DNA from: a virus
Taxonomy: Duplodnaviria > Caudoviricetes
Reading direction: 5' to 3' (one strand)
Virus record (IMG/VR): IMGVR_UViG_3300037483_000185
Location: 1-36,900 of that record
DNA: 36,900 nucleotides
Shown here: in pieces, positions 3,880-36,358 of the stretch
How the letters are laid out: every line of letters starts with the position of its first letter
How positions within the stretch are numbered: the first letter of the stretch is position 1
Made by a program: the position numbers and the translations under genes
The notes under the pieces: generated by a model
What the model saw: only the letters and a program-made list of their open reading frames with translations
What the model was told of the DNA's origin: nothing
Databases searched by the model: none

Positions 3880-4787
3880 TTACGCCCTGCTATCGAGCAC
3901 GATGAAGTGCGACTGAGTCGATCCACCCTTGTATGGTGTGAGGGCTGAGGCCCGGACTGGCTGGCCATCGGTCCGCATGACGAACCGGAAGACCGACTCG
4001 TCATAGATGAACCGGACGTGGATGCTCATGTCGCTCTTGATCCCGCCCTTCTCGGCGATGACGTAACCGTTGGGGAAGTTCGCAAGGATCAGGTCGCCAG
4101 CCGTGCCAAGCGCGGCTGCCTGCTCGATCGCCAGTGCAGGGAGACCCTTGATGCGACCGTACGGAGTATCGCTCAATCCACCCGGAGGCAGATAGACGGG
4201 GATCCCACCCGTACCTACTGCATAAGACATCTGCGACAACTGCGGTTCGATGGTCTGATTATAGAGCCACACATAGTTGGACGTCTGCGATGCAAACCGG
4301 CGTGCAAACATCTTGTCGATATTCTCGGCAACGATCGTTGCCGCATTCTGTCCCGTCTCCTTCGCCACGCTGACAAGGCACGAAGCGTTCAGGATGCCGA
4401 GAGGCTGGCCGGCGCCGGTTCCGTTGACGATTGCATCGTCCATCAGGAACCCGAACTCACCCACGAACCCGTCACGGATGAATCCCTCTAGGGCCGCAGC
4501 GTCGTCAAGCAACTCATCGGTCGCGTAGCAGAGGCCGATGAGCTTGTTGAGGTTCAGTTCGATCTTGCGGAACTTCGGGGCGGACTTGGTCTTCAGTTCC
4601 GCTTCGCTCGCCCAGTAGCCGACGATCCCACCGTAGCGGGTAGAGACACGGGAGGTCTCATCGACACCGTTGATCTTCATGCTGTTGGCATTGCCGCTGA
4701 TCGGCTGCCGGCGGCACCGGGAAGCGAGAACGCCAGTCTGGAACACGTCCTGCAACAGGTCGGTCGCGAAATCTTGCTGAACCAGAA
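3880..4787 (-). CDS. major capsid protein (HK97 fold), exon 2
   Basis: TDELLDDA, GTGAGQPLGIL, GDLILANF, FRFVMRTDG motifs; joins exon 1 to give SDGGF-LVQQDF (438 aa spliced). Confidence 0.9.
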
Positions 4788-5511
4788 CGATCCATCCCCA
4801 GACTTTCGAAAGGGGTCGGACTATATCATCACAGTTTGAAACAACGAATAGCGACCGTCAGAACTGTTTCTCCGGCTTTCGGATTTTTGCCGGTTCAATT
4901 CGCTATTCGCCAACTGCGCCTCGCGTGTAGTCTCTGAGGTTCCCCGTTTTTGCTTGGCAATACAGGATTCAACAATCTGTGCCTCCCGTTCGGTCATTAC
5001 GTTGTGATGACTTCCGGGAATCCAGGTCCGCAGTCTCGACTGGCAATACTCAAGGACCAATTCGCCCCTCTCTTTTTTCATGCCAGTTAAATACGGATTT
5101 ACCAACTCCAACACCGGGATGAGCTTATTCATTCGATGGACGATCAATACCCATACAATCTTCGACTTGGGCTTATTCCTTATCCCATAGCCGTGAGTCC
5201 TGATGTATGGATTCACGCCAACCTTTTGAATAATTTTCTTGGCCTTCAAGATCATGGCCTCATCTGTGTTGGATACCTGGAGTGCACACGAATAACTCGG
5301 ATGGCATCGGCGGGTCTTGTATTCTGATATCCCGATATATCCTTCGCCATCTATAAATCCTGCAAGCCAACCAATTTCAATCTGGGTTACCTGCTGATTG
5401 CCTATTTCGGCCGTAGCCTCATCCTCAAGGATTTTCGCATAGGTAGCACCTTGGGCTTTAAGGGGTTCCAGCAAATAGCGAGGTTTCATGTGGGCCTCTG
5501 GCTTTACGCTA
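4788..5511 (-). mobile_element. group I intron (724 nt) in major capsid gene
   Basis: 5' exon ends in U (GTGGGT pairs GCCCAC, U.G wobble, P1); IGS AGCCAGAG pairs 3' exon TTCTGGTT (P10); P TTGCTGGAA, Q AATCAGCAGG, R CTCAGAGACTACA, S ATGATATAGTCC; terminal G at 4788; splicing restores frame. Confidence 0.92.
4821..5489 (-). CDS. intron-encoded single-motif LAGLIDADG homing endonuclease
   Basis: WLAGFIDGEG motif, LQVSNTD, PYLTGMK; lies inside the intron. Confidence 0.88.
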   Translation of the reverse strand: MKPRYLLEPLKAQGATYAKILEDEATAEIGNQQVTQIEIGWLAGFIDGEGYIGISEYKTRRCHPSYSCALQVSNTDEAMILKAKKIIQKVGVNPYIRTHGYGIRNKPKSKIVWVLIVHRMNKLIPVLELVNPYLTGMKKERGELVLEYCQSRLRTWIPGSHHNVMTEREAQIVESCIAKQKRGTSETTREAQLANSELNRQKSESRRNSSDGRYSLFQTVMI

Positions 5512-5920
5512 ACCCACCATCCGACGGAACGCTTTCGGACATCCCGGAAGCGGCGGCGGCACGGAACAACCTCGGGTCGGTATGGCCGTTGGGCAGACCC
5601 GCCCGCATGACGGCGGCCATCTGCTCGCCGAACGAAAGGAACTTGTCCTTCTTCTCGGCACCTTCCGGCCGAGCATGACCCTGCGGCGTAGGCCGGGTGA
5701 TCGGGGCAGGGGTGGCGGCCAATGACGCCGTCATCCTCTCCTGACGCTCCTGTGTGGCGATGATCGTCTGGAGTTCGTCGACGTTGTCCATGAGTTCGGT
5801 CTTGAGCTTGATCTCGGTTTCGGAAGGATCACGCCCCTCTGCAACCAACTTCGCGTCGATGTCACCGACCTTCTTGACAAGGCGGGCGAGGTCTTCGCGG
5901 TATCCGGAAATGGTCTTCAT
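5512..5920 (-). CDS. major capsid protein exon 1 (coiled-coil delta/scaffold domain)
   Basis: SD GAGGAG, coiled-coil N-terminus, FLSFGEQMAAV...DPRL...GMSESVPSDGG. Confidence 0.88.
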
Positions 5921-8576: not shown

Positions 8577-9302
8577 TTAGGCTACCTTGGCCCACTTGCG
8601 GAGGTTATCCCCGGCCCAAAGAGGTTGAAGATTGGAGTAATGGAAACATTGCTTCTGTTGCTCGGGTATGGAAAGATCGAACGATGCGCACGGGATACGG
8701 TGGTCGAGATGCCACCCCCTAAACGTGTGGTTCTTCCACGTCATCCCCGGCTCAAATTGTGATTCAATGTGTTTTTTTAATTCCTCAACGGAACACCCAA
8801 TCAATTCGCTCGTGTTGAAGTGTTTGCATCTGCCCGCCAATGCCTCGCGGACCCTGACCCGGAAAACCCTGCTTAATCTGTAGCTTTGATCCGATTGTTT
8901 TCTTTGTTTTTCGTAATTCCTCATATATTCCCTGCGTCTTTCCGCTACCAAGGGCCTCTTCGAATATTCTTTCCCAGCCTGTTTGAGTTCCTCTGTGTGT
9001 TCCTGATGATATTCTCGGGACCTCCGATTTAGGGCCTCCCGATTCTCCTCATAATATTTCTTTTGCTTTGCCTTTATTGCTTCCTTGTTTTTTGCGCGGT
9101 ATCTTTTTTGTCTCTCATATACTTTTTCTTTGTTTGCTACTACGTATTCCCTTGCTTGCCTTATCTTCTGCTCCCTTTTGGACAGATAATACCGCGCATT
9201 ATGTTCGCGCCTGCATTGCTTACAGTGGCTAACGTGCCCACCGGGTTTGGCGTAAAATTCTTTTATTGATCGTTCCTTTTTACAGCGAGAGCAAGTTTTC
9301 AT
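8577..9302 (-). CDS. free-standing HNH/endonuclease VII-like homing endonuclease
   Basis: N-terminal CxxC..CxxC, basic repeats, C-terminal GMTW...WHLDHRIP...FHYSNLQPLW...NLRK; start at ATG 9302 behind a TGnTATAAT promoter. Confidence 0.8.
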   Translation of the reverse strand: MKTCSRCKKERSIKEFYAKPGGHVSHCKQCRREHNARYYLSKREQKIRQAREYVVANKEKVYERQKRYRAKNKEAIKAKQKKYYEENREALNRRSREYHQEHTEELKQAGKEYSKRPLVAERRREYMRNYEKQRKQSDQSYRLSRVFRVRVREALAGRCKHFNTSELIGCSVEELKKHIESQFEPGMTWKNHTFRGWHLDHRIPCASFDLSIPEQQKQCFHYSNLQPLWAGDNLRKWAKVA

Positions 9303-9317
9303 TGGTGTATTATAACA
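9303..9317 (-). promoter_or_regulatory. extended -10 promoter, leaderless
   Basis: TGT-TATAAT-6 nt-ATG, no SD. Confidence 0.6.
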
Positions 9318-9323
9318 CACCCT

Positions 9324-12281
9324 TCATAAAACTACTATACCCCGGCTTTCATATATTGATGTCGTGTCGTTTTTAAGCATGGCTCTTGATATTGCCATAA
9401 TCATGGCGACTACACCATCAATCTTTTCAGTGGATCGTTCCTTGTCAGGTTTTAGGTTAAAAGCCGGATCTGTTTTTACTACTGTATTTGAAACCATCCA
9501 CGCCAAAACGGGGTGCCCTGCGTGGGCAATCTCGCCCGATAAAACCATCTTCTCTAATTCCTTGGTCGGAGAAGACATCGAAGCAAAACCTTGCCCAAAT
9601 TGAATGAGATTGCATTTGCCCTCTACTTCAAACCCCAAATCCTGTAAATCAGTAATAATTTTCTGGCTTCCCCATCTATCAAAAGCCAACTCTGCCAAGT
9701 CGTAGTCGGTCAAGTCCTTCTGGATTTGAGCAAGAACGTACTTGTAGTCGATCACGTTGCCCGGCGTTGCAGTTATAAATCCTTGTCGGACCCATACGTC
9801 ATAGGGCACTTTGTCCCTACGTGCCCGCTCCCGCATGTTGTCTTCGGGGATGAAGAACCGGCAGAGGACCGAATACTTGCCGCCGATCTTCTCGGGGGGG
9901 AACACGAGTACCCATGCCGTGATGTCCGTCGTGGAGGACAGGTCGAGGCCGCCGTAGCAGATCCGTCCCTTCAATGCCTCGGGATCGACCGCATCGCCGC
10001 AGGCGTTCCACTTCTCCAAAGATAGCCATTTTGTTACGGATTCTGTCCAAATGTTGAAGTTAAGCCTCTTGACAATGTTTTCCTTCGACGGCATCTCCGA
10101 CGCCTCGGCAACCTGCTCCCGCAGGTACTTACGCGGAATGATGACATCGAGACTCGGGTTTGCCTTGATCCACTTCGACTCGTCTTTCCATGAGTCGCAG
10201 TCGGGGCAACCGTCTACCGGGATCGTCTTCCCGTCCGCCGAACACTTCTCGCAGACATCCAAACCCGTGATGTACGCGAACCATGAATCGTTCTCGAAGA
10301 CGCCTTCAAGGATCTTTTCGCTGTGCTCGTGATGTTGGTAACAAACCGAGTGGCGGTCATATCCGCTGTTGTGCGTCGGGACCATTGAGCGACCAGCAAG
10401 AAACAGGTGCGACGGCGAATCAACCGAGATGCACCTTACCGGGACAGACGAGACTGGTTGAACGTCTACAATTCTCCTGTTTCCCGTCATCCTTTTTCTG
10501 GTATGCCTAATTCGGTTGTGCCGTTGCTTTCTTTCTAATCCGAATATCTTCATCCCCCACGGGGGATAAAAAAACACATCCCACCGGTCGAATGATTTGC
10601 CCATTAATTCGGATATACTGTGCAACATCGTGCATTTTATTCCGAGGCTACTTACGAGTTCATAAACCTGCGAGCATAGTTCCTCTTTGCTTTGCGTAAA
10701 TACGCAACGCCCCGTTCTCGGGTCGATGCTCCCGTCAGTATCCATGAGTCCATGAAGCAACGCCGACCGCTGTCGGATGGATGCTCTCAAGTATTCGGGA
10801 GGGATATGCTTGTTTCTTAGAAGTCCCTCTCGCTTCATCGTGCAATGAAGAGAATCTTGCCGCCCCCTGCCCGTAACCCCTATCCCGTACATCCCGAGGG
10901 TGGGGGAACACCCGACTTGCCTTCTCCGTCCAACTGAAACCCCTGCGGCGACAATGTTATCGACTATCTCCAAATCACCGTCGGTTACAACAATGGCCGC
11001 ATCCTTTGAGTTCCCGTCTCCGAGCCAACAACCCAAGACGTAGGGGTCTATCGGTAAATCCGCTTCGGGGAGGTTTAATGATTTGCATAAGCGCACGCGA
11101 TGATTTGCGTACGTTCTCCATTTCAGCGTTCTTTCAATTTCCTCTGTGGATCTTATGCCCACCCGCTGCCGTAGCTTGTTCCTATGCCCGGAAGCAACGT
11201 AACTTCTATGTCTGCCGTTCCCATCAAATTCATAGAAGGTGCTACCGCAACCGCATATACATTCGACTAACCTGTTTGGTTCCCCTGCTTTTCTTCGCTC
11301 CCGTTTTGGAAGATTGTCCTCTCTCCGCCCCGCAACCATTTCGTCCCAAGACATACTTCCCCGGACCTGCGTGGTTTCCCACAGGTGCCCGGCATCGGCT
11401 ACTATTTCTGTCCCATCATCGAACACAACCCTATAGCACTTGTGGTCGCGCATGATGTCCGTGGCCGCAACAACATTGCATGTGTTCCCATCGTCGTCGA
11501 AAACCTGATCTCCGACATTCAGCGTTCCCATCGTCGCCCATCCGCTGGGCACCGGGATCGGGGTATCGAGCGAAAGGGCGTTTGTAATCTCTACGATGAG
11601 TGCCTGCCGACGGCCCTTTGTCCCCGCCCGCATCTTGTCCACAACGAGTGCGTTCGGATGCTCGTGAATCTCGTCGATCAGCGCGATATGCGGACGCTTG
11701 CCGTCCAACCCCCGGTGCTCGGACGACAGCGGGCGGAAGTAGGAGTTTTTCTCCGTGTAGGCGATGTTGCTTTTGTCTACTGTCAGGCGGCGCAGGAGCG
11801 CGGGCGACCCTTCAACGAACGCTTTGGCATCGCGGAACAGAATGCCCGCTTGGTCGCGGGTAGTCGCCGCTGAATAAATCTCGCAACCTGGCTCGTCATC
11901 CATGACGAGGCCGTATAGACCAATTCCTGAAGCGAGCGGCGTTTTCCCCGCGCCCTTCGAGGCTTCAATATATGCAGTACGGAACCGCCTGAATCCATCT
12001 TCCGACTTCCAACCGAACAGGTTGCCGACGATAAATTTCTGCCACGGCATCAGGTGAAACGGCTTGTTATCCCACTCGCCTTCGTAGAACACGAGAAGTT
12101 TCGGGAAGAACTCTATCGCCCGCATCGCCGTCTTATGGTCAAAATAAAGACCCCGCGAGGGGCCGTCTTCCAAGTCCTTCAGGTGTCTCTTACATGCGAG
12201 ACGCACCCAGCGGTTCGCTAATATCTTCCCGCTGCCCACATCCTCCGCGTATTGCTTGACCGGACAGGCATCAGCGGCCAT
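9324..12281 (-). CDS. terL: terminase large subunit with intein (581 aa after splicing)
   Basis: Walker A SKGAGKT, Walker B ALIDEIH, nuclease GGLDLS, KIDGVVA. Confidence 0.95.
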   Translation of the reverse strand: MAADACPVKQYAEDVGSGKILANRWVRLACKRHLKDLEDGPSRGLYFDHKTAMRAIEFFPKLLVFYEGEWDNKPFHLMPWQKFIVGNLFGWKSEDGFRRFRTAYIEASKGAGKTPLASGIGLYGLVMDDEPGCEIYSAATTRDQAGILFRDAKAFVEGSPALLRRLTVDKSNIAYTEKNSYFRPLSSEHRGLDGKRPHIALIDEIHEHPNALVVDKMRAGTKGRRQALIVEITNALSLDTPIPVPSGWATMGTLNVGDQVFDDDGNTCNVVAATDIMRDHKCYRVVFDDGTEIVADAGHLWETTQVRGSMSWDEMVAGRREDNLPKRERRKAGEPNRLVECICGCGSTFYEFDGNGRHRSYVASGHRNKLRQRVGIRSTEEIERTLKWRTYANHRVRLCKSLNLPEADLPIDPYVLGCWLGDGNSKDAAIVVTDGDLEIVDNIVAAGVSVGRRRQVGCSPTLGMYGIGVTGRGRQDSLHCTMKREGLLRNKHIPPEYLRASIRQRSALLHGLMDTDGSIDPRTGRCVFTQSKEELCSQVYELVSSLGIKCTMLHSISELMGKSFDRWDVFFYPPWGMKIFGLERKQRHNRIRHTRKRMTGNRRIVDVQPVSSVPVRCISVDSPSHLFLAGRSMVPTHNSGYDRHSVCYQHHEHSEKILEGVFENDSWFAYITGLDVCEKCSADGKTIPVDGCPDCDSWKDESKWIKANPSLDVIIPRKYLREQVAEASEMPSKENIVKRLNFNIWTESVTKWLSLEKWNACGDAVDPEALKGRICYGGLDLSSTTDITAWVLVFPPEKIGGKYSVLCRFFIPEDNMRERARRDKVPYDVWVRQGFITATPGNVIDYKYVLAQIQKDLTDYDLAELAFDRWGSQKIITDLQDLGFEVEGKCNLIQFGQGFASMSSPTKELEKMVLSGEIAHAGHPVLAWMVSNTVVKTDPAFNLKPDKERSTEKIDGVVAMIMAISRAMLKNDTTSIYESRGIVVL
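10368..11579 (-). mobile_element. class 3-type intein (404 aa, residues 235-638) with LAGLIDADG domain
   Basis: ITN|ALSLDTPIP start with Ala1; block B ADAGHLW, block F VRCISVD, block G PTHN|S (W-C-T triplet); LGCWLGDG and LHGLMDTDG motifs. Confidence 0.9.
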
Positions 12282-13829
12282 TCAGACCGCCGCGAAAAGG
12301 GGTTGCATGGTTCCGATTCTCGCTTCCGCAATCGCCACGTATTCTGGATTCAGTTCGATGCCGATGAACGTGAACCCCTCCGCGATTGCTGCCTTGCCCG
12401 TACTCCCGCTCCCCGCGAATGGATCCAGCACGACCCCGCCGGGAGGCGTTACGAGGCGGCAGAGGTAGCGCATCAGATCGGTTGGCTTAACCGTCGGATG
12501 GTTATTCCCTTCGCCTCGGTCGCTCTTGCTCGCCTTCGCGCAGTAGAAGAACCGGGCGGCGGAACCGCCCGTATCGGCGGGCCAAGTACCTTCTTTCTCT
12601 GGCGACCCTAAGCCGCCCTGTCCATGCCACGAACTGCCCCCGCGTTTCCCGGTTCTCGCCGCCTTGGGGGAACCCGTTTCGGGAAACAACCCCGTTACTT
12701 CCTCGCTCCCGTCGTGGATGACGTTAGCGGGCCAGCGGCCTTGCGATTGGTCAACTCCAGCGCGGATGGTAATCCCGCCGTTGTGAAGCGCGGACGTTCC
12801 CTTACAACCCCCCTCGATCTTCCCTCCCGGCGCATCCACCCTGCATCCGTCCACGTTGATCGCCCCCGTCCCGTGCGCCAGCACGTTCGAGGCGACGGTG
12901 CCGATCAAGGGCTTGCGGGCGAGAACAAGCGGTTCGTGTGCCGGTTTTAAGGCTGTGCCAAATCCTTTGTACTGAATCAGGCCCCCGCACTTCGGGCAAG
13001 TTTCGGCTCGGCCTTCTTGTGTTCCCCGTTTGAATTGAACATCAGGAGGTTCGTGCTGGCGTTGTTTGCGGGGTTGTGATCCCGATGATGCACCACTTCC
13101 GACCGGAGCAGGGGCCTTCCTATCTTCTCGGCCATTATCAGGCGATGCTCCATCACGTACCCGTCCTTCCGGGCCATTACCTTGAACTTCTCCGGGCATC
13201 GGATATACTTCACGCCCTTGTAATTCCCGTGAGGCCTCTTGTACGTCACCCCGCCCTTCCACGCGGGATTCTTCGGGCCGCACATTGGAGTGAATGTCTT
13301 TCTGGCGGGTGGCCCCTTGTACCCGTGCTTCGCCCACTCCTTCCCGCGCTGAATCCCGTTGCACCTGTAACTGCAAAAGTGGGCTTTCGTCCGCTTCGCC
13401 CAACAGGGGAATTTCCATAGAATCCGTCCGCACGTCGCGCAGTTCAATCTGATCCTTATTGTCTTTCTCATGGTTATATGGTAGCGCATCTCCCCGGCAT
13501 TTACAACCGATATTCAATGACTTGGGAAATCCTGACGCATACACCCACTGGATCTGATCCCTGATCTCAAACCCCGCATCCTCGATCGCGCACGCCAGCC
13601 GGTGATAGGTGCGGGACCCTCCGAACGCGAGGAGATGCCCTCCTGGTTTTAGGACGCGCAACGCTTCGGCCCACACGTCCACGCTGTACGCCACGCCGGA
13701 GGAATCCCACTTCTTCCCCATGAAACCGAGTTCATAGGGGGGATCGGTAACGATGGAGTCCACGGAGTCTGCATCCATCTTCCGCATCACCTCAAGGCAA
13801 TCGCCCTGATGGATCAAACTATCTGCCAT
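12282..13829 (-). CDS. DNA amino-methyltransferase (beta class, N6/N4) with ~175 aa overprinted insertion
   Basis: DPPY, GFPKS, GTALKPAHEP, HPTVKP, LDPFAGSGSTG; one uninterrupted ORF. Confidence 0.88.
   Translation of the reverse strand: MADSLIHQGDCLEVMRKMDADSVDSIVTDPPYELGFMGKKWDSSGVAYSVDVWAEALRVLKPGGHLLAFGGSRTYHRLACAIEDAGFEIRDQIQWVYASGFPKSLNIGCKCRGDALPYNHEKDNKDQIELRDVRTDSMEIPLLGEADESPLLQLQVQRDSAREGVGEARVQGATRQKDIHSNVRPEESRVEGRGDVQEASRELQGREVYPMPGEVQGNGPEGRVRDGASPDNGREDRKAPAPVGSGASSGSQPRKQRQHEPPDVQFKRGTQEGRAETCPKCGGLIQYKGFGTALKPAHEPLVLARKPLIGTVASNVLAHGTGAINVDGCRVDAPGGKIEGGCKGTSALHNGGITIRAGVDQSQGRWPANVIHDGSEEVTGLFPETGSPKAARTGKRGGSSWHGQGGLGSPEKEGTWPADTGGSAARFFYCAKASKSDRGEGNNHPTVKPTDLMRYLCRLVTPPGGVVLDPFAGSGSTGKAAIAEGFTFIGIELNPEYVAIAEARIGTMQPLFAAV
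12977..13471 (-). CDS. HNH homing endonuclease nested out-of-frame in the methyltransferase
   Basis: CATCG...FCSYRC, NPAWKGG, GYVMEHRLIMAEKIGRPL..EVVHHRDHNPANN...NL. Confidence 0.88.
   Translation of the reverse strand: MRKTIRIRLNCATCGRILWKFPCWAKRTKAHFCSYRCNGIQRGKEWAKHGYKGPPARKTFTPMCGPKNPAWKGGVTYKRPHGNYKGVKYIRCPEKFKVMARKDGYVMEHRLIMAEKIGRPLLRSEVVHHRDHNPANNASTNLLMFNSNGEHKKAEPKLARSAGA
13472..13506 (-). promoter_or_regulatory. sigma70-like leaderless promoter inside methyltransferase CDS
   Basis: TTGTAA-17 nt-TACCAT-6 nt-ATG(13471). Confidence 0.55.
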
Positions 13830-14328
13830 TCAGAAAGTCTTCTTGTGGATCGACCTGCCCGCCGCCGGGTACGTTGATCTTCCCCCGCGAGGAAGCGGTC
13901 GTGCCGAACTCGTTGCACCAGAACCGGAGGGTCTGCGATGCGAGTCTCTGTTGCGCGAACAGCGGGTTGATCTTCAACTCGACCGCCATCACCTCGTCCG
14001 ACCGGCCCTCATCGTCCTTCTTCTCAAGGAACGAATGCTTCTCCGCGAGCACCTTATACCCGCATTCCTTGAGCGCCATCGCGATCCGGACGGAGGCCGC
14101 ATAAGAGGTACACAGTTCCGCGAACGCCATACCGTCAAGTTCCGTGAGGATGCCGATATTCACGAAGAGGGGCGCGAGGCGCTTCCATTCCTTCTTGGCG
14201 ATCGGGTCGAGGTGGGGGGGCATCGGGGGGGCGACACGTTTCGGCTGCGGCTCGCCCACGGGGAGGGGGCGCTTGCCGGGATTGCCGCGAAGCAACCGCA
14301 GGGCTGTGGGTACCGCAGGATTCGGCAT
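13819..14328 (-). CDS. terS: terminase small subunit, P27 family
   Basis: PTALRLLRGNPGKRPL, AKKEWKRL, NPL, EFGTTASSR; start at ATG 14328 after GAGAGGT SD. Confidence 0.9.
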   Translation of the reverse strand: MPNPAVPTALRLLRGNPGKRPLPVGEPQPKRVAPPMPPHLDPIAKKEWKRLAPLFVNIGILTELDGMAFAELCTSYAASVRIAMALKECGYKVLAEKHSFLEKKDDEGRSDEVMAVELKINPLFAQQRLASQTLRFWCNEFGTTASSRGKINVPGGGQVDPQEDFLNGR

Positions 14329-14397
14329 CGTTACCTCTCGTTTTTCACTGGATGGGCATGTTTCAGCGTTTGCTGAAAGAGTGAAAACGTACAAAAC

Positions 14398-14552
14398 GTC
14401 GGCACTTGTCTAAATGTGCCGACTTGACAGCGTTGTCAAGTTGTGGCGTAAGTTCGACAATGTAGAACCATTGCCACTTGCGGTCTAATGTCAATGAAGT
14501 GTCAATTAGTGTCAAATTGACAGTTCAGTCGGTGACAATTTGTCACCGACTG
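14398..14552. repeat. array of TGTCAA/TTGACA repeats and palindromes upstream of terS
   Basis: GTCGGCAC/GTGCCGAC, ACTTGACA/TGTCAAGT, TGTCAA at 14489, 14500, 14510, and 27 bp palindrome CAGTCGGTGACAA-T-TTGTCACCGACTG. Confidence 0.75.
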
Positions 14553-14745
14553 GTTGGTGGGTACCGGCATCCCCTCATCGGCCCTGCGTGGTAGACGGGG
14601 ACTCACGGAGGAATCCAGTAGGGGAGTTGCTTGGCTCTCTTCCACCTACCGGACCACGCACCTAGCGTCAGCCAAGCCGCGCCGATACCCACCCAAGCCC
14701 GTGACGTTTGCGCTTGCCCCACTATCCGGCAGAGGCTCCACGGGA
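14553..14745 (-). ncRNA. candidate structured non-coding RNA
   Basis: Nested helices GGUGGGUAUCGGC/GCCGGUACCCACC, UGCGUGGU/ACCACGCA, UCCGGUAGG/CCUACUGGA (G.U pairs only on minus); potential GCUUGGCU/AGCCAAGC pseudoknot; no credible ORF. Confidence 0.5.
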
Positions 14746-14852: not shown

Positions 14853-15113
14853 TTACCCTGCCGTAGCCCTGCCGCTTTTTACCATGTCATCCCATGTGAG
14901 CCAGTTGGGGGCATAATAATGACCCAGACTTGCGATTACCTCTTCCCAATTAAGCCAATCTATGTAGAGATTCCCGCACTGATGGCATGTAACCATGCCG
15001 GGGCGCTTACGCTCAAATTCGAACCCGCATCTCTGGCATCTATATTTCGATACCGCGGGGGTCATCTTCCCCAACGCTCTCCCTTGTGGATCTCCTCGTG
15101 GCATGAAGTACAA
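14853..15113 (-). CDS. small zinc-ribbon protein (likely start near 15065)
   Basis: YRCQRCG...TCHQCG; ATGA overlap with the HNH stop. Confidence 0.55.
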   Translation of the reverse strand: MYFMPRGDPQGRALGKMTPAVSKYRCQRCGFEFERKRPGMVTCHQCGNLYIDWLNWEEVIASLGHYYAPNWLTWDDMVKSGRATAG

Positions 15114-15439
15114 AGACTGAGCAAATTTTCGCTTGCCGAATTTGTCTCATCGCGGTCGCGGTGGTGAACGAGTTGCGCCGCCGTCGTTTTCCCTTGCCGC
15201 TCACACTCTTCACAGAGCGGACTGCGCCTCAATTTCATCTCGCGGACCGCCCTCCACGTCCGACTGTGCAGGAACTTTCTCTGATCGGTCTGATCCCGCT
15301 CCACATCGTACCGGCGGGTCTGCTGCTTCAGATATGGCAGGCAGTCGACGCAACAGGAGATCCCCCGGGCAACGAGGTTCGGGCATCTGCCGCGGCGCGG
15401 CCCGGCGCCGGAGCACGGGTGGCGGGGGGCGATCGGCAT
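15062..15439 (-). CDS. HNH endonuclease, HK97 gp74-like terminase accessory
   Basis: WRAVR..PLCEEC...VHHRD...NLLSLCTSCHEEIH; upstream of terS. Confidence 0.85.
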   Translation of the reverse strand: MPIAPRHPCSGAGPRRGRCPNLVARGISCCVDCLPYLKQQTRRYDVERDQTDQRKFLHSRTWRAVREMKLRRSPLCEECERQGKTTAAQLVHHRDRDETNSASENLLSLCTSCHEEIHKGERWGR

Positions 15440-20696: not shown

Positions 20697-21701
20697 CTAC
20701 GCGCTTATGGCGAGGCCGAGGGCTGGCTGGAAGGGGGCGGATAATTTGTTGCTCTTACTTATGTTTGCCTCTGCCCACATGGGTTGCAAATTGCTGATCG
20801 CCCAACATCGCCTGAAGTCGATGTCATACTCCGTAGTGAAGTTAAATGCCGATACCGGGATCTCATGGTCAATGTGTATCTCGCCATTGAGAAAACGCTT
20901 CCAAGTCATCCCCTTCGTGAACCGCTTCTCCAGGTGTGTCTTCAGGTCGCCGGGGGAGTAATCGAGAAGGGTGGACCACTTCTTGCCCCCTTTCCCGCGC
21001 TTCAATGAACTAAATATCAAATATCTCATCCTGTTTTTGATATTAAAATGGACATCGGTTCTTCTTCGTTCTGTCTCTTGCGCCCGACGAAGGGGTTTAT
21101 TCCGCTCTTGCCGCGCCCTATCTTGGGCGGCGTGGACGATGCGCTGTTTCTTTTTGTAGGCTTTCCCGGCGGGAGTCTTTATGTATTTTAGCTGTTTCGC
21201 GGTCGCGCACGGCTTACATGTGTTGCCAAAACCGTCGCACGCGCTGGCGCTGTTGTAATAATTGTCCGGGGTCATCGCCTTGTATTCCTTGCAGACCCAA
21301 CACCGCTTCATCGTAACTCCATCGACAACGGGGCGGTTCCGCTTTATTCTTTCAGCGTCGATCCTGCGGCGAGAACAAATGTGGGAGCAATACATTTGCT
21401 TCTTAAATCGCACCGTATATTTTTGCCCACATAAGCCGCAATTTCTTTCGCCATAGGATCTAACCTTGCGGAAAAATTCATTGTCGTATTTTCTTCTGCA
21501 TTCGCAAGAACAGTATTTCTTCTTCCGCCCCGCGAACTCCGCGCCGCACTGGAGGCAGGCGTTTGCCGCAGCACTATTCGGCCCACGGTGCGCCCTACTG
21601 CGTTCCCTTGACATTTCCCTGTTCGCGTCCGACCTGCACTTCTCCCCGCAATATTTCCTTTTGCGGCCTTCAAATTCCCTCTTACACTGGGGGCAGATCA
21701 T
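20697..21701 (-). CDS. free-standing HNH/endonuclease VII-like homing endonuclease with repeated Zn modules
   Basis: Three CxxC..YC..C repeats plus C-terminal GMTW..HIDHEIP..NLQPMW..NISK, same domain as 8577-9302. Confidence 0.8.
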   Translation of the reverse strand: MICPQCKREFEGRKRKYCGEKCRSDANREMSRERSRAHRGPNSAAANACLQCGAEFAGRKKKYCSCECRRKYDNEFFRKVRSYGERNCGLCGQKYTVRFKKQMYCSHICSRRRIDAERIKRNRPVVDGVTMKRCWVCKEYKAMTPDNYYNSASACDGFGNTCKPCATAKQLKYIKTPAGKAYKKKQRIVHAAQDRARQERNKPLRRAQETERRRTDVHFNIKNRMRYLIFSSLKRGKGGKKWSTLLDYSPGDLKTHLEKRFTKGMTWKRFLNGEIHIDHEIPVSAFNFTTEYDIDFRRCWAISNLQPMWAEANISKSNKLSAPFQPALGLAISA

Positions 21702-21737
21702 AGAAATAAAGTATACCACAAACGGCAATCAAGTCAA
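21702..21737 (-). promoter_or_regulatory. sigma70 leaderless promoter
   Basis: TTGACT-16 nt-TATACT (TGn extended)-8 nt-ATG. Confidence 0.6.
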
Positions 21738-35296: not shown

Positions 35297-36358
35297 TCAT
35301 CCCATCAGCCCCGCCATCGCCGGGGTAGTTGTCATTCGTTTCCGTGCCAGTTCGTGATACGTCAGGTCGATATGGACGGGCTTGCGGCCCAGCTCGAGCG
35401 CGACCTTGCTTGTCGTGCCGCTCCCGCCGAAGGGGTCAAGGATTACATCTCCGGGCCTGCTCCCTGCGAGGATGCATAGGCGCGGGATTTCCTCAGGGAA
35501 GGTGGCAAAATGGCTCCCGGCGAACGGCTGCGTCGCGATGGACCAAACGGTGCGCTTATTCCTTCCGGTTACGGGGTTTTCTCTATATCGGGCATTGAAC
35601 CCAGTATAAGTGGGGTTCCCGGTGCCATCCTGCTTGAGCGTCCTGATCGTCCCGCCTCCTCGGTCGTGTCCATTCCCTCTCGCGTCGACCTGCCCGGGGG
35701 CATAGGGTTTACGTGGATCTTCGGTGATAGAGTCTTCCTTGATCGCCTCCGCGTTATAGAAATACTTGGCCGATTTTGTAAGCAGGAAAACATATTCATG
35801 AGATTTCGTAGGTCGATCCGTAACCGATTCCGGCATCGGATTTAATTTGGCCCAAATTATGTCGGAACGGAGATACCAGCCGTCCGCTTGCAGGGCGAAG
35901 GCGACACGCCACGGGATGCCGACGAGATCCTTGTGCTTGAGGCCGATCCTGCTTGCGAACCGGGACGGGTTGTATCCATCCTTTCGGCCTCGTTTCGCGG
36001 AGTCATCCCCATATCCCCCGACGCCCCCCGCAAGCGTTTCAGCCGGGGGCGTAGTGCCGCCGCGTTGCGCCGCATACGAATCCCCCAAATTCAGCCACAG
36101 CACGCCGTCGTCCTTCAGCACCCGCCGAACTTCGCGGAACACGGCGACCATGTTGGCGACGTACTCCTCGGGCGTTTTCTCAAGGCCAAGTTGGGCGGCA
36201 TTCCCATAATCCCGCAGGCCCCAGAAGGGCGGCGAAGTACAGGCCATCTGCACGGATTCGTCGCGCAGTGGTATAGCGAGGGCGTTGGCTTTTAGGATCA
36301 AAACGTCACCACGAAATTCAGTACGGCCGCCGCGCTCCAATAGCAGACCATCCGCCAC
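35297..36358 (-). CDS. DNA amino-methyltransferase (beta class, SPPF motif, probably N4-cytosine)
   Basis: TSPPFWGLRDY, LWLNLGDSY, NPMPESVTDRPT, HFATFP, LDPFGGSGTT. Confidence 0.9.
   Translation of the reverse strand: MADGLLLERGGRTEFRGDVLILKANALAIPLRDESVQMACTSPPFWGLRDYGNAAQLGLEKTPEEYVANMVAVFREVRRVLKDDGVLWLNLGDSYAAQRGGTTPPAETLAGGVGGYGDDSAKRGRKDGYNPSRFASRIGLKHKDLVGIPWRVAFALQADGWYLRSDIIWAKLNPMPESVTDRPTKSHEYVFLLTKSAKYFYNAEAIKEDSITEDPRKPYAPGQVDARGNGHDRGGGTIRTLKQDGTGNPTYTGFNARYRENPVTGRNKRTVWSIATQPFAGSHFATFPEEIPRLCILAGSRPGDVILDPFGGSGTTSKVALELGRKPVHIDLTYHELARKRMTTTPAMAGLMG

Follow-up and report, generated by a model that had tools for sequence, protein, structure and literature searches.

The closest described system is the ShiLan domain, in which an HNH endonuclease with zinc fingers is encoded out of frame within an open mycobacteriophage methylase (Arsenault, Gosselin, Gogarten 2025, PMC11855218). 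According to the available text of that source, ShiLan carries no intron or intein signs, its loop is predicted to hang off the enzyme, and leaderless initiation has been proposed for it (PMC11855218). The case comprises about ten mycobacteriophages, and the same text explains neither the tolerance of ~200 extra residues nor the means of expressing the hidden gene (PMC11855218). The words 'promoter', 'antisense' and 'deletion' did not appear in a word search of that text, nor does its available main text give a stop-depletion statistic. The mobility of ShiLan has been demonstrated (Gosselin et al. 2023, PMC9957025). Related arrangements are found in inteins whose homing endonuclease is out of frame or antisense (Gosselin et al. 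2025, bioRxiv 10.1101/2025.01.02.630785; see also the cyanobacterial dnaX intein, 10.64898/2026.09.14.751524) and in the inteins with out-of-frame endonucleases described by Phillips et al. 2026. Nicking by I-HmuI and MobE has been reported along with split hosts, namely Aeh1 nrdA with mobE and T4 gene 60 with mobA (PMC2988022).

The window analysed here is a stretch of 36,900 nt (positions 1 to 36,900 of IMGVR_UViG_3300037483_000185; Duplodnaviria; Caudoviricetes), and its features are listed in the table. As in ShiLan, a stop-free insertion in a phage methylase holds an intact HNH gene in another frame; to judge from the published part of the ShiLan account, the two also share the lack of splicing signs and an insert predicted to loop out. 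The ShiLan-bearing Mantra gp64 is an N6_N4_Mtase with GFPKS and GTALKP, of the same family as the window methylase, with which it shares 81% identity over 54 aa ending just past GFPKS, and the two HNH proteins are related (26% identity, E 6e-7). The Mantra insert, however, lies after GTALKP..ARKP, about 11 codons past GTALKP and with a repeat of about 11 residues, whereas the window insert lies between GFPKS and GTALKP; the HNH frame is +2 in Mantra and +1 in the window; and the CxC/CxxC cysteine bracket (hereafter the clasp) is missing in ShiLan and present in the window. The other site, the other frame and the 26%-identical HNH rule out that the window insert is the ShiLan element itself. 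By sequence comparison, the insert works like ShiLan, yet it is a different element. The preliminary description of this locus had seen in it a further way for a homing endonuclease to occupy a host gene; the layout proved real, but its kind is already published as ShiLan, in the same methylase family. The inteins mentioned above resemble the window, in the published parts available, in having an endonuclease in a second frame beneath an open, unstructured host-frame spacer. They differ in their splicing domain, which the window insert lacks, and the non-canonical intein endonucleases published in those sources are endonuclease VII-like, LAGLIDADG or VSR proteins in other host genes.

Features of the nested methylase-HNH locus; positions refer to the 36,900-nt window
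Feature	Position	Strand and frame	Remark
terS (terminase small subunit)	13819..14328	minus	3' end shares 11 nt with methylase start
Beta-class N6/N4 DNA methyltransferase, 515 aa	12282..13829	minus	no internal stop; N6_N4_Mtase match E 5e-34
DPPY motif, methylase	13734-13745	minus	
GFPKS codons	13518-13532	minus	conserved left flank of loop
Inserted methylase loop, 186 codons, GFPKS to GTALKP	12960..13517	minus	predicted disordered in middle
Likely HNH promoter	13478..13506	minus	-35 TTGTAA 13506-13501, 17 nt, -10 TACCAT 13483-13478, 6 nt, ATG
CKC, N-side half of the putative clasp (C109, C111, methylase frame)	13497..13505	minus	invariant in 49 aligned clasp-type proteins
HNH endonuclease ORF, 164 aa	12977..13471	minus, +1 relative to methylase	ATG 13471; stop 12977-12979
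CPKC, C-side half of the putative clasp (C278, C281, methylase frame)	12987..12998	minus	at least 90% conserved; overlaps last HNH codons
GTALKP codons	12942-12959	minus	conserved right flank of loop
DPFAGSGST motif, methylase	12399-12425	minus	
terL (terminase large subunit)	9324..12281	minus	ATG immediately after methylase stop

The host gene stands in the gapless minus-strand order terS, methylase, terL. Its product has the features of a beta-class enzyme, with DPPY preceding FxGxG and a Rossmann core in both sequence and model, and the catalytic motifs are conserved in the alignment of 49 clasp-type proteins. In the AlphaFold model the methylase core is predicted with confidence and resembles M.BceJIV, CcrM and M.MboIIA (Z 24-25, rmsd 2.5-3.1); pLDDT is below 50 across most of residues 117-272 and 64-77 at the loop ends. 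Among the methylase relatives compared, clasp-less alleles have loops of 7-158 aa at the same site. Several of them (L014, L015, L023, L024, L032 and others) contain in-frame loops of 120-158 aa that look helix-turn-helix-like by eye, which suggests that the loop site tolerates several kinds of insert. The nested layout is not an assembly artefact, because contigs of two studies span the loop: one, of the possible source sequencing run, is identical over 12837-13683 (0 differences), and the other, from a separate study, covers 12843-13739 at ~93% identity to the window. A second N6/N4 methylase of 353 aa is encoded at 35297-36358 (minus strand), and the loop-bearing methylase may therefore be partly redundant.

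The preliminary description had reported a complete 164-aa HNH gene in an alternative frame of the GFPKS-GTALKP loop, a methylase frame open across the insert, and neither an intron core nor an intein signature. All three observations were borne out, by agreement of the coordinates with the Pfam and PHROG matches, by the uninterrupted 515-aa ORF, and by a negative Rfam scan with a loop end that is not of the splicing type. The HNH ORF matched HNH_3 of Pfam just short of the curated cut-off (E 8e-5) and PHROG HNH families with a best E of 2e-15. It consists of an N-terminal Cys4 finger, an NPAWKGG motif and an HNH core (H129, N141, H151), with H129, N137, N141, N148 and H151 invariant in 49 HNH sequences. 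The predicted structure has a mean pLDDT of 87; in Foldseek its top rows, I-HmuI (E 0.22) and YacG zinc fingers, were all weak, with nothing at E <= 0.001, and a PDB sequence search with the HNH profile gave no significant match. The likeness to I-HmuI thus comprises an HNH_3-type core and a top, though weak, structural row, while that to mobE lies in a methylase (L312) split by this HNH family. In the published descriptions available, I-HmuI is intron-encoded and the mobE and mobA hosts are two ORFs, whereas the window host stays one ORF. Counted from ATG 13489, the HNH ORF would be 170 aa long; this start was rejected, as the conserved -10 spacing points to 13471.

An intein is a splicing domain with an N-terminal Cys/Ser and a terminal Asn/Gln followed by Cys/Ser/Thr. 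The methylase loop ends in QYKGF directly before GTALKP, with no terminal Asn before Ser/Thr/Cys, and these residues, together with the predicted disorder of the loop, rule out an intein. The Rfam scan of 12200-14600 found no intron model and returned two chance rows only (E ~3), and Rfam weakly picked up a group I intron elsewhere in the same window (E 0.018). No intron or intein was thus detectable in the loop with Pfam and Rfam, library negatives that are weak by themselves; a group I or II intron is ruled out by the Rfam result combined with the 0 stops against 415 expected described below. Translational bypassing requires an in-frame stop and was rejected, since the methylase frame has none. 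The 515-aa methylase is very probably read through in full, without splicing.

To judge selection on the host frame, three collections were scanned at the DNA level, using nothing but the C-side motif (CxxC-9-G[TS]ALKP) as the pattern; the matches were 55 loci from viruses, 23 from genomes and 120 from metagenomes. This methylase accounts for 171 of the 198 matches, and the remaining 27, chance matches in non-methylase sequence, were excluded. The set of unique bounded clasp loops, from which L193 (a chance match) and L163 (no clasp) were left out, numbers 101 including the window: 86 have their HNH in sense and in the +1 frame, 8 have it in antisense, and 7 are short. All are 3n long and stop-free except L183, which is frameshifted. 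In 46 further loci that reach the edge of the DNA examined, the host frame is open to that edge, and in L106 it is open over 290 codons upstream. Synonymous codons were then shuffled within each HNH gene in 81 of the 85 full sense loci (13,767 codons; L173, L181, L216 and L217 left out). No host-frame stop was seen against 414.7 expected, while third-frame stops numbered 660 against 594.6 expected under the same shuffling. A T at HNH codon ends where it would create a host-frame stop occurred in 0 of 2787 codons, compared with 1811 of 8289 other codons; in the window alone the figures are 0/35 and 17/85 (P ~4e-4). Antisense-HNH alleles also lack host-frame stops, with 37.8 expected (n=8). The stop counts are not independent events, because the loci share ancestry; the median identity of the HNH cores among loci is only 59%.

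Stop depletion in homologues had been proposed as a check in the preliminary description, which named frequent host-frame stops in homologous inserts as the finding that would count against it. The check came out in its favour, with no host-frame stop in the 81 loci and 100 of the 101 clasp loops stop-free. Moreover, a search starting from the HNH, with no methylase filter, gave 73 unique regions among the best 80 of 306 relatives; in 71 of these 73 the -1 frame is open, and all 71 lie within this methylase family. Distant HNH relatives with a closed -1 frame have 4-11 stops there. Values of pN/pS, uncorrected and from 11 hand-picked pairs, rose from 0.18-0.23 in the methylase flanks and C-terminus through 0.40 in the HNH frame to 1.19 in the host-frame loop; both genes are therefore maintained, and the loop interior need only be stop-free. 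On these sequence statistics, the nested layout is beyond chance.

The cysteines bracketing the loop are a further shared property of the family. In the 101 loops chosen by the C-side motif alone, CxC is found in 100 and CxxC in the remaining one; conversely, all 16 contigs found by an N-side motif search were also recovered by the C-side search. TGT and TGC are used near-evenly at all four positions. The cysteines are retained in 8/8 antisense-HNH alleles (L101, L120, L161, L164, L178, L189, L197, L238), which carry a related HNH clade within the same clasp and an open host frame. They are also retained in 7/7 short deletion alleles, all in frame, whose loops go down to 30 aa (the smallest reads CKC-10-CEKC) and most of which hold HNH remnants in the +1 frame. 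In L324, clasp and HNH occur together at a second site upstream of GFPKS, which suggests that the clasp travels with the HNH cassette. An antisense HNH of the family interrupts the L312 methylase (227-2365) and leaves it as two ORFs; the first ORF ends with CHC plus 6 residues and the second starts 5 residues before CPCC. Searches for further split methylases of this kind found none (4 loci in one set and 28 in another, whose 10 new loci were checked).

Zinc binding by such cysteine motifs is established zinc-finger chemistry, and, from the motif, CKC and CPKC probably form a zinc clasp that pins the loop ends together. Among the 23 loop-site inserts of the HNH-first set (best 80 of 306), 14 have four cysteines, 1 is truncated, 2 have the N-side CxxC alone and 6 have no cysteines, so that the clasp is not required. 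The CKC/CPKC bracket of the preliminary description thus stands as four cysteines conserved in the host frame, but as a common and not an obligatory feature. In many loci the first Cys codon has a second role, as the TTG of the -35 or through overlap with a candidate GTG start, and its conservation could partly be due to this.

Expression of the nested gene was approached through the region before ATG 13471. The site there has 8 of 12 consensus matches and falls below the threshold of the promoter scan, which did not list it, so that its support comes from spacing across loci. Of 212 candidate starts, 40 have the pattern TAnnnT at a spacer of 6, compared with none of 919 internal ATG/GTG codons; at each of the other spacers (0 to 15) it precedes at most 9 of the 212. 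The TAnnnT-6-ATG box is present in 37 of 85 loci, with TACCAT as consensus and TTG at -35 in 19 of the 37. The other 48 loci have no -10 box, and 25 of them show a Shine-Dalgarno-like tetramer, a count that has no control. A -10 box 6 nt before ATG sets the transcript start at the ATG, giving a leaderless mRNA. Judging by this sequence pattern, a leaderless promoter probably drives the HNH at 13471. The string TTGTAA-17-TACCAT-6-ATG noted in the preliminary description is present, and its -10/ATG spacing is conserved across loci. The accompanying idea that the CK codons double as the -35 applies to the window, but extends to only a subset of the family (TTG 19/37, box missing in 48/85).

The distribution of clasp alleles bears on mobility. 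On a 144-core methylase tree they need 15 changes, compared with 48 when shuffled, and at least 4 are forced by strong branches. Six random 44-row subsets were put to the AU test, and four of them rejected a single clasp origin (p = 0.0065, 0.19, 0.0013, 0.28, 0.014 and 0.00085); a 40-row AU test (p 0.00018), whose rows were chosen after seeing the tree, was discounted and the random subsets preferred. The correlation between HNH and methylase identities is weak (rho 0.16, 62 loci), and of the 77 bounded loops in the methylase relatives searched, 3 belong to clasp alleles. As read from these alignments, the distribution fits homing, and ordinary phage recombination could also scatter the alleles. 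The loops of clasp-less alleles are very different from one another, so that no single empty target junction could be identified.

Within the best 80 of 306 HNH relatives, 71 of 73 are located no more than ~15 codons from a common point in a single gene family, in three settings. In 47 of the 73 the HNH is out of frame inside an intein inserted between YG and SGFPKS (e.g. L289, L293), that is, six codons upstream of the loop and just before the Ser preceding GFPKS. We take this element to be an intein from its motifs (C...TGN ends followed by S); Pfam found no splicing domain in the L293 intein. On a 154-row HNH tree, rooted with the antisense copies and L009 and leaving out three long distant rows, intein-borne copies fall within the loop-borne diversity with modest support, and the intein group needs 4 changes, 1 forced by strong branches. 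Transfer of the HNH from loop to intein is only suggested by this topology. Intein and clasp never occur in one allele (0/44, 0/101), a weak observation as both are rare, and this non-overlap fits, weakly, a shared target. In L309 (~1490-2013) a close HNH relative stands free between two ORFs that by eye resemble phage tail genes; its -1 frame holds just 2 stops, and it may have escaped recently from nesting. Overall, these comparisons make it fairly likely that the HNH is actively homing.

The locus is likely to represent a non-splicing homing HNH gene nested in an open methylase, with a disordered loop that is kept and a four-Cys zinc site. The sequences show that the two frames overlap and that selection purges every base that would make a host-frame stop; they also show purifying selection on both methylase halves and on the HNH frame, and not on the host-frame loop interior. 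Ribosomes would translate the entire 515-aa product, CKC and CPKC would bind one Zn2+ and join the ends of the 166-residue interior, and the closed clasp would let the methylase core fold as though the loop were short. The HNH would be expressed from a separate leaderless mRNA that begins at ATG 13471, and would nick insert-free methylase alleles near the GFPKS codons in the manner of I-HmuI, with repair copying the cassette in. After decay of the HNH, in-frame deletions would shrink the loop while the clasp remains.

The same anatomy could also harbour an HNH that does not home, being a passenger or a benefit to the phage (e.g. by excluding co-infecting phage DNA), and spreads by recombination between the flanks. 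The clustering of clasp alleles on the methylase tree (15 changes against 48), the 2 of 6 random AU tests that fail to reject one origin, a pS of 0.53 in the HNH against 0.56-0.62 in the flanks (11 pairs) with no general sign of recent sweeps, and the lack of a target junction among clasp-less alleles would all suit such an HNH. It is nevertheless unlikely, given that 71 of 73 close relatives (best 80 of 306) lie close to a common point of a single gene family, in three settings, that the HNH core residues are invariant and that, as weak evidence because both are rare, intein-borne and clasp-borne copies never occur together (0/44, 0/101). The cysteines, for their part, could be a by-product of DNA constraints (the -35, a GTG start, the HNH C-terminal tail) and bind nothing. 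Their persistence when the HNH is antisense, deleted or moved or the gene is split, the use of both TGT and TGC at all four positions and the co-occurrence of the N and C halves in 100/101 and 16/16 cases make this improbable, even though the first Cys codon has a T before it in 17 of the 22 loci that share the window's spacing, compared with 26 of the other 63, TGT-G yields a candidate GTG start in many loci, and 6 inserts (HNH-first set, best 80 of 306) have no cysteines.

An insert that kills the methylase, whose frame would stay open merely against polarity or for coupling to the downstream gene (here terL), would agree with the methylase stop abutting the terL ATG and with a next start located -11 to +10 nt from it in half of the loci whose 3' end is complete (41 of 82), a proportion that has no control. 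This is very improbable in view of the pN/pS of ~0.2 that insert-bearing alleles show in both halves of the methylase and the conserved catalytic motifs; moreover, it leaves the four conserved cysteines unexplained, and half of the loci show no coupling. Unrecognised splicing at the RNA or protein level, with the cysteines as part of its chemistry, must be considered extremely unlikely. An RNA intron needs neither 0/415 stops nor 3n lengths, deletion alleles of 30-83 aa are too small for a ribozyme or a splicing domain, and the loop end has no terminal Asn before Ser/Thr/Cys, with Rfam negative. The proximity of a Cys to the loop start speaks for splicing, as does the weakness of library negatives, Pfam having also missed the splicing domain in the L293 intein.

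A broader scheme can be offered tentatively, as one that is rather doubtful at present: the CxC/CxxC motif would be a portable, intein-substituting clasp, borne by the mobile cassette, that seals the overprinted loop in cis in either HNH orientation and rejoins the split methylase in trans (L312), and one HNH lineage, stop-free in its -1 frame, would hop between neighbouring sites and would have given the adjacent intein its endonuclease, in a series of clasped loop, bare loop, intein-nested, antisense and split forms. Compared with the published ShiLan, the cysteine clasp, the promoter pattern and this insertion site appear to be new; a literature search, with subscription journals and bioRxiv supplements outside its scope, found no description of any of the three. 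The family is large and diverse, with 171 motif-bearing methylase loci in collections of viruses, genomes and metagenomes, and it suggests testable answers to the questions of loop tolerance and hidden-gene expression, namely the zinc clasp and the leaderless promoter. It also contains natural controls, namely alleles that are clasp-only (30 aa), clasp-less, antisense, intein-nested or split. A working clasp would add to RNA and protein splicing a third means by which a selfish nuclease can neutralise its insertion, and would bear on how inteins acquire endonucleases. Nested nucleases of this type are missed by gene callers because they are hidden under a longer ORF.

By its annotated ORFs, the window genome is rich in endonuclease genes. 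The major capsid gene is apparently interrupted (3880-5920, minus strand), with a 138-aa ORF at 5504-5920 and the remainder at 3880-4755. Between these pieces lies a 222-aa ORF (4821-5489) with the PHROG label HNH and what we take to be a LAGLIDADG-like motif, and the capsid region includes the weak Rfam group I intron match (4797-5110, E 0.018, below the curated score). TerL (985 aa, 9324-12281, minus strand) contains an insertion of ~410 aa with a LAGLIDADG domain, whose ends (ALSLDT...THN followed by S) presumably fit an intein. Two endonuclease VII-like ORFs (phrog_1035) are located on the minus strand at 8577-9320, between terL and the portal gene, and at 20697-21728, and a terminase-associated HNH is found at 15062-15439.
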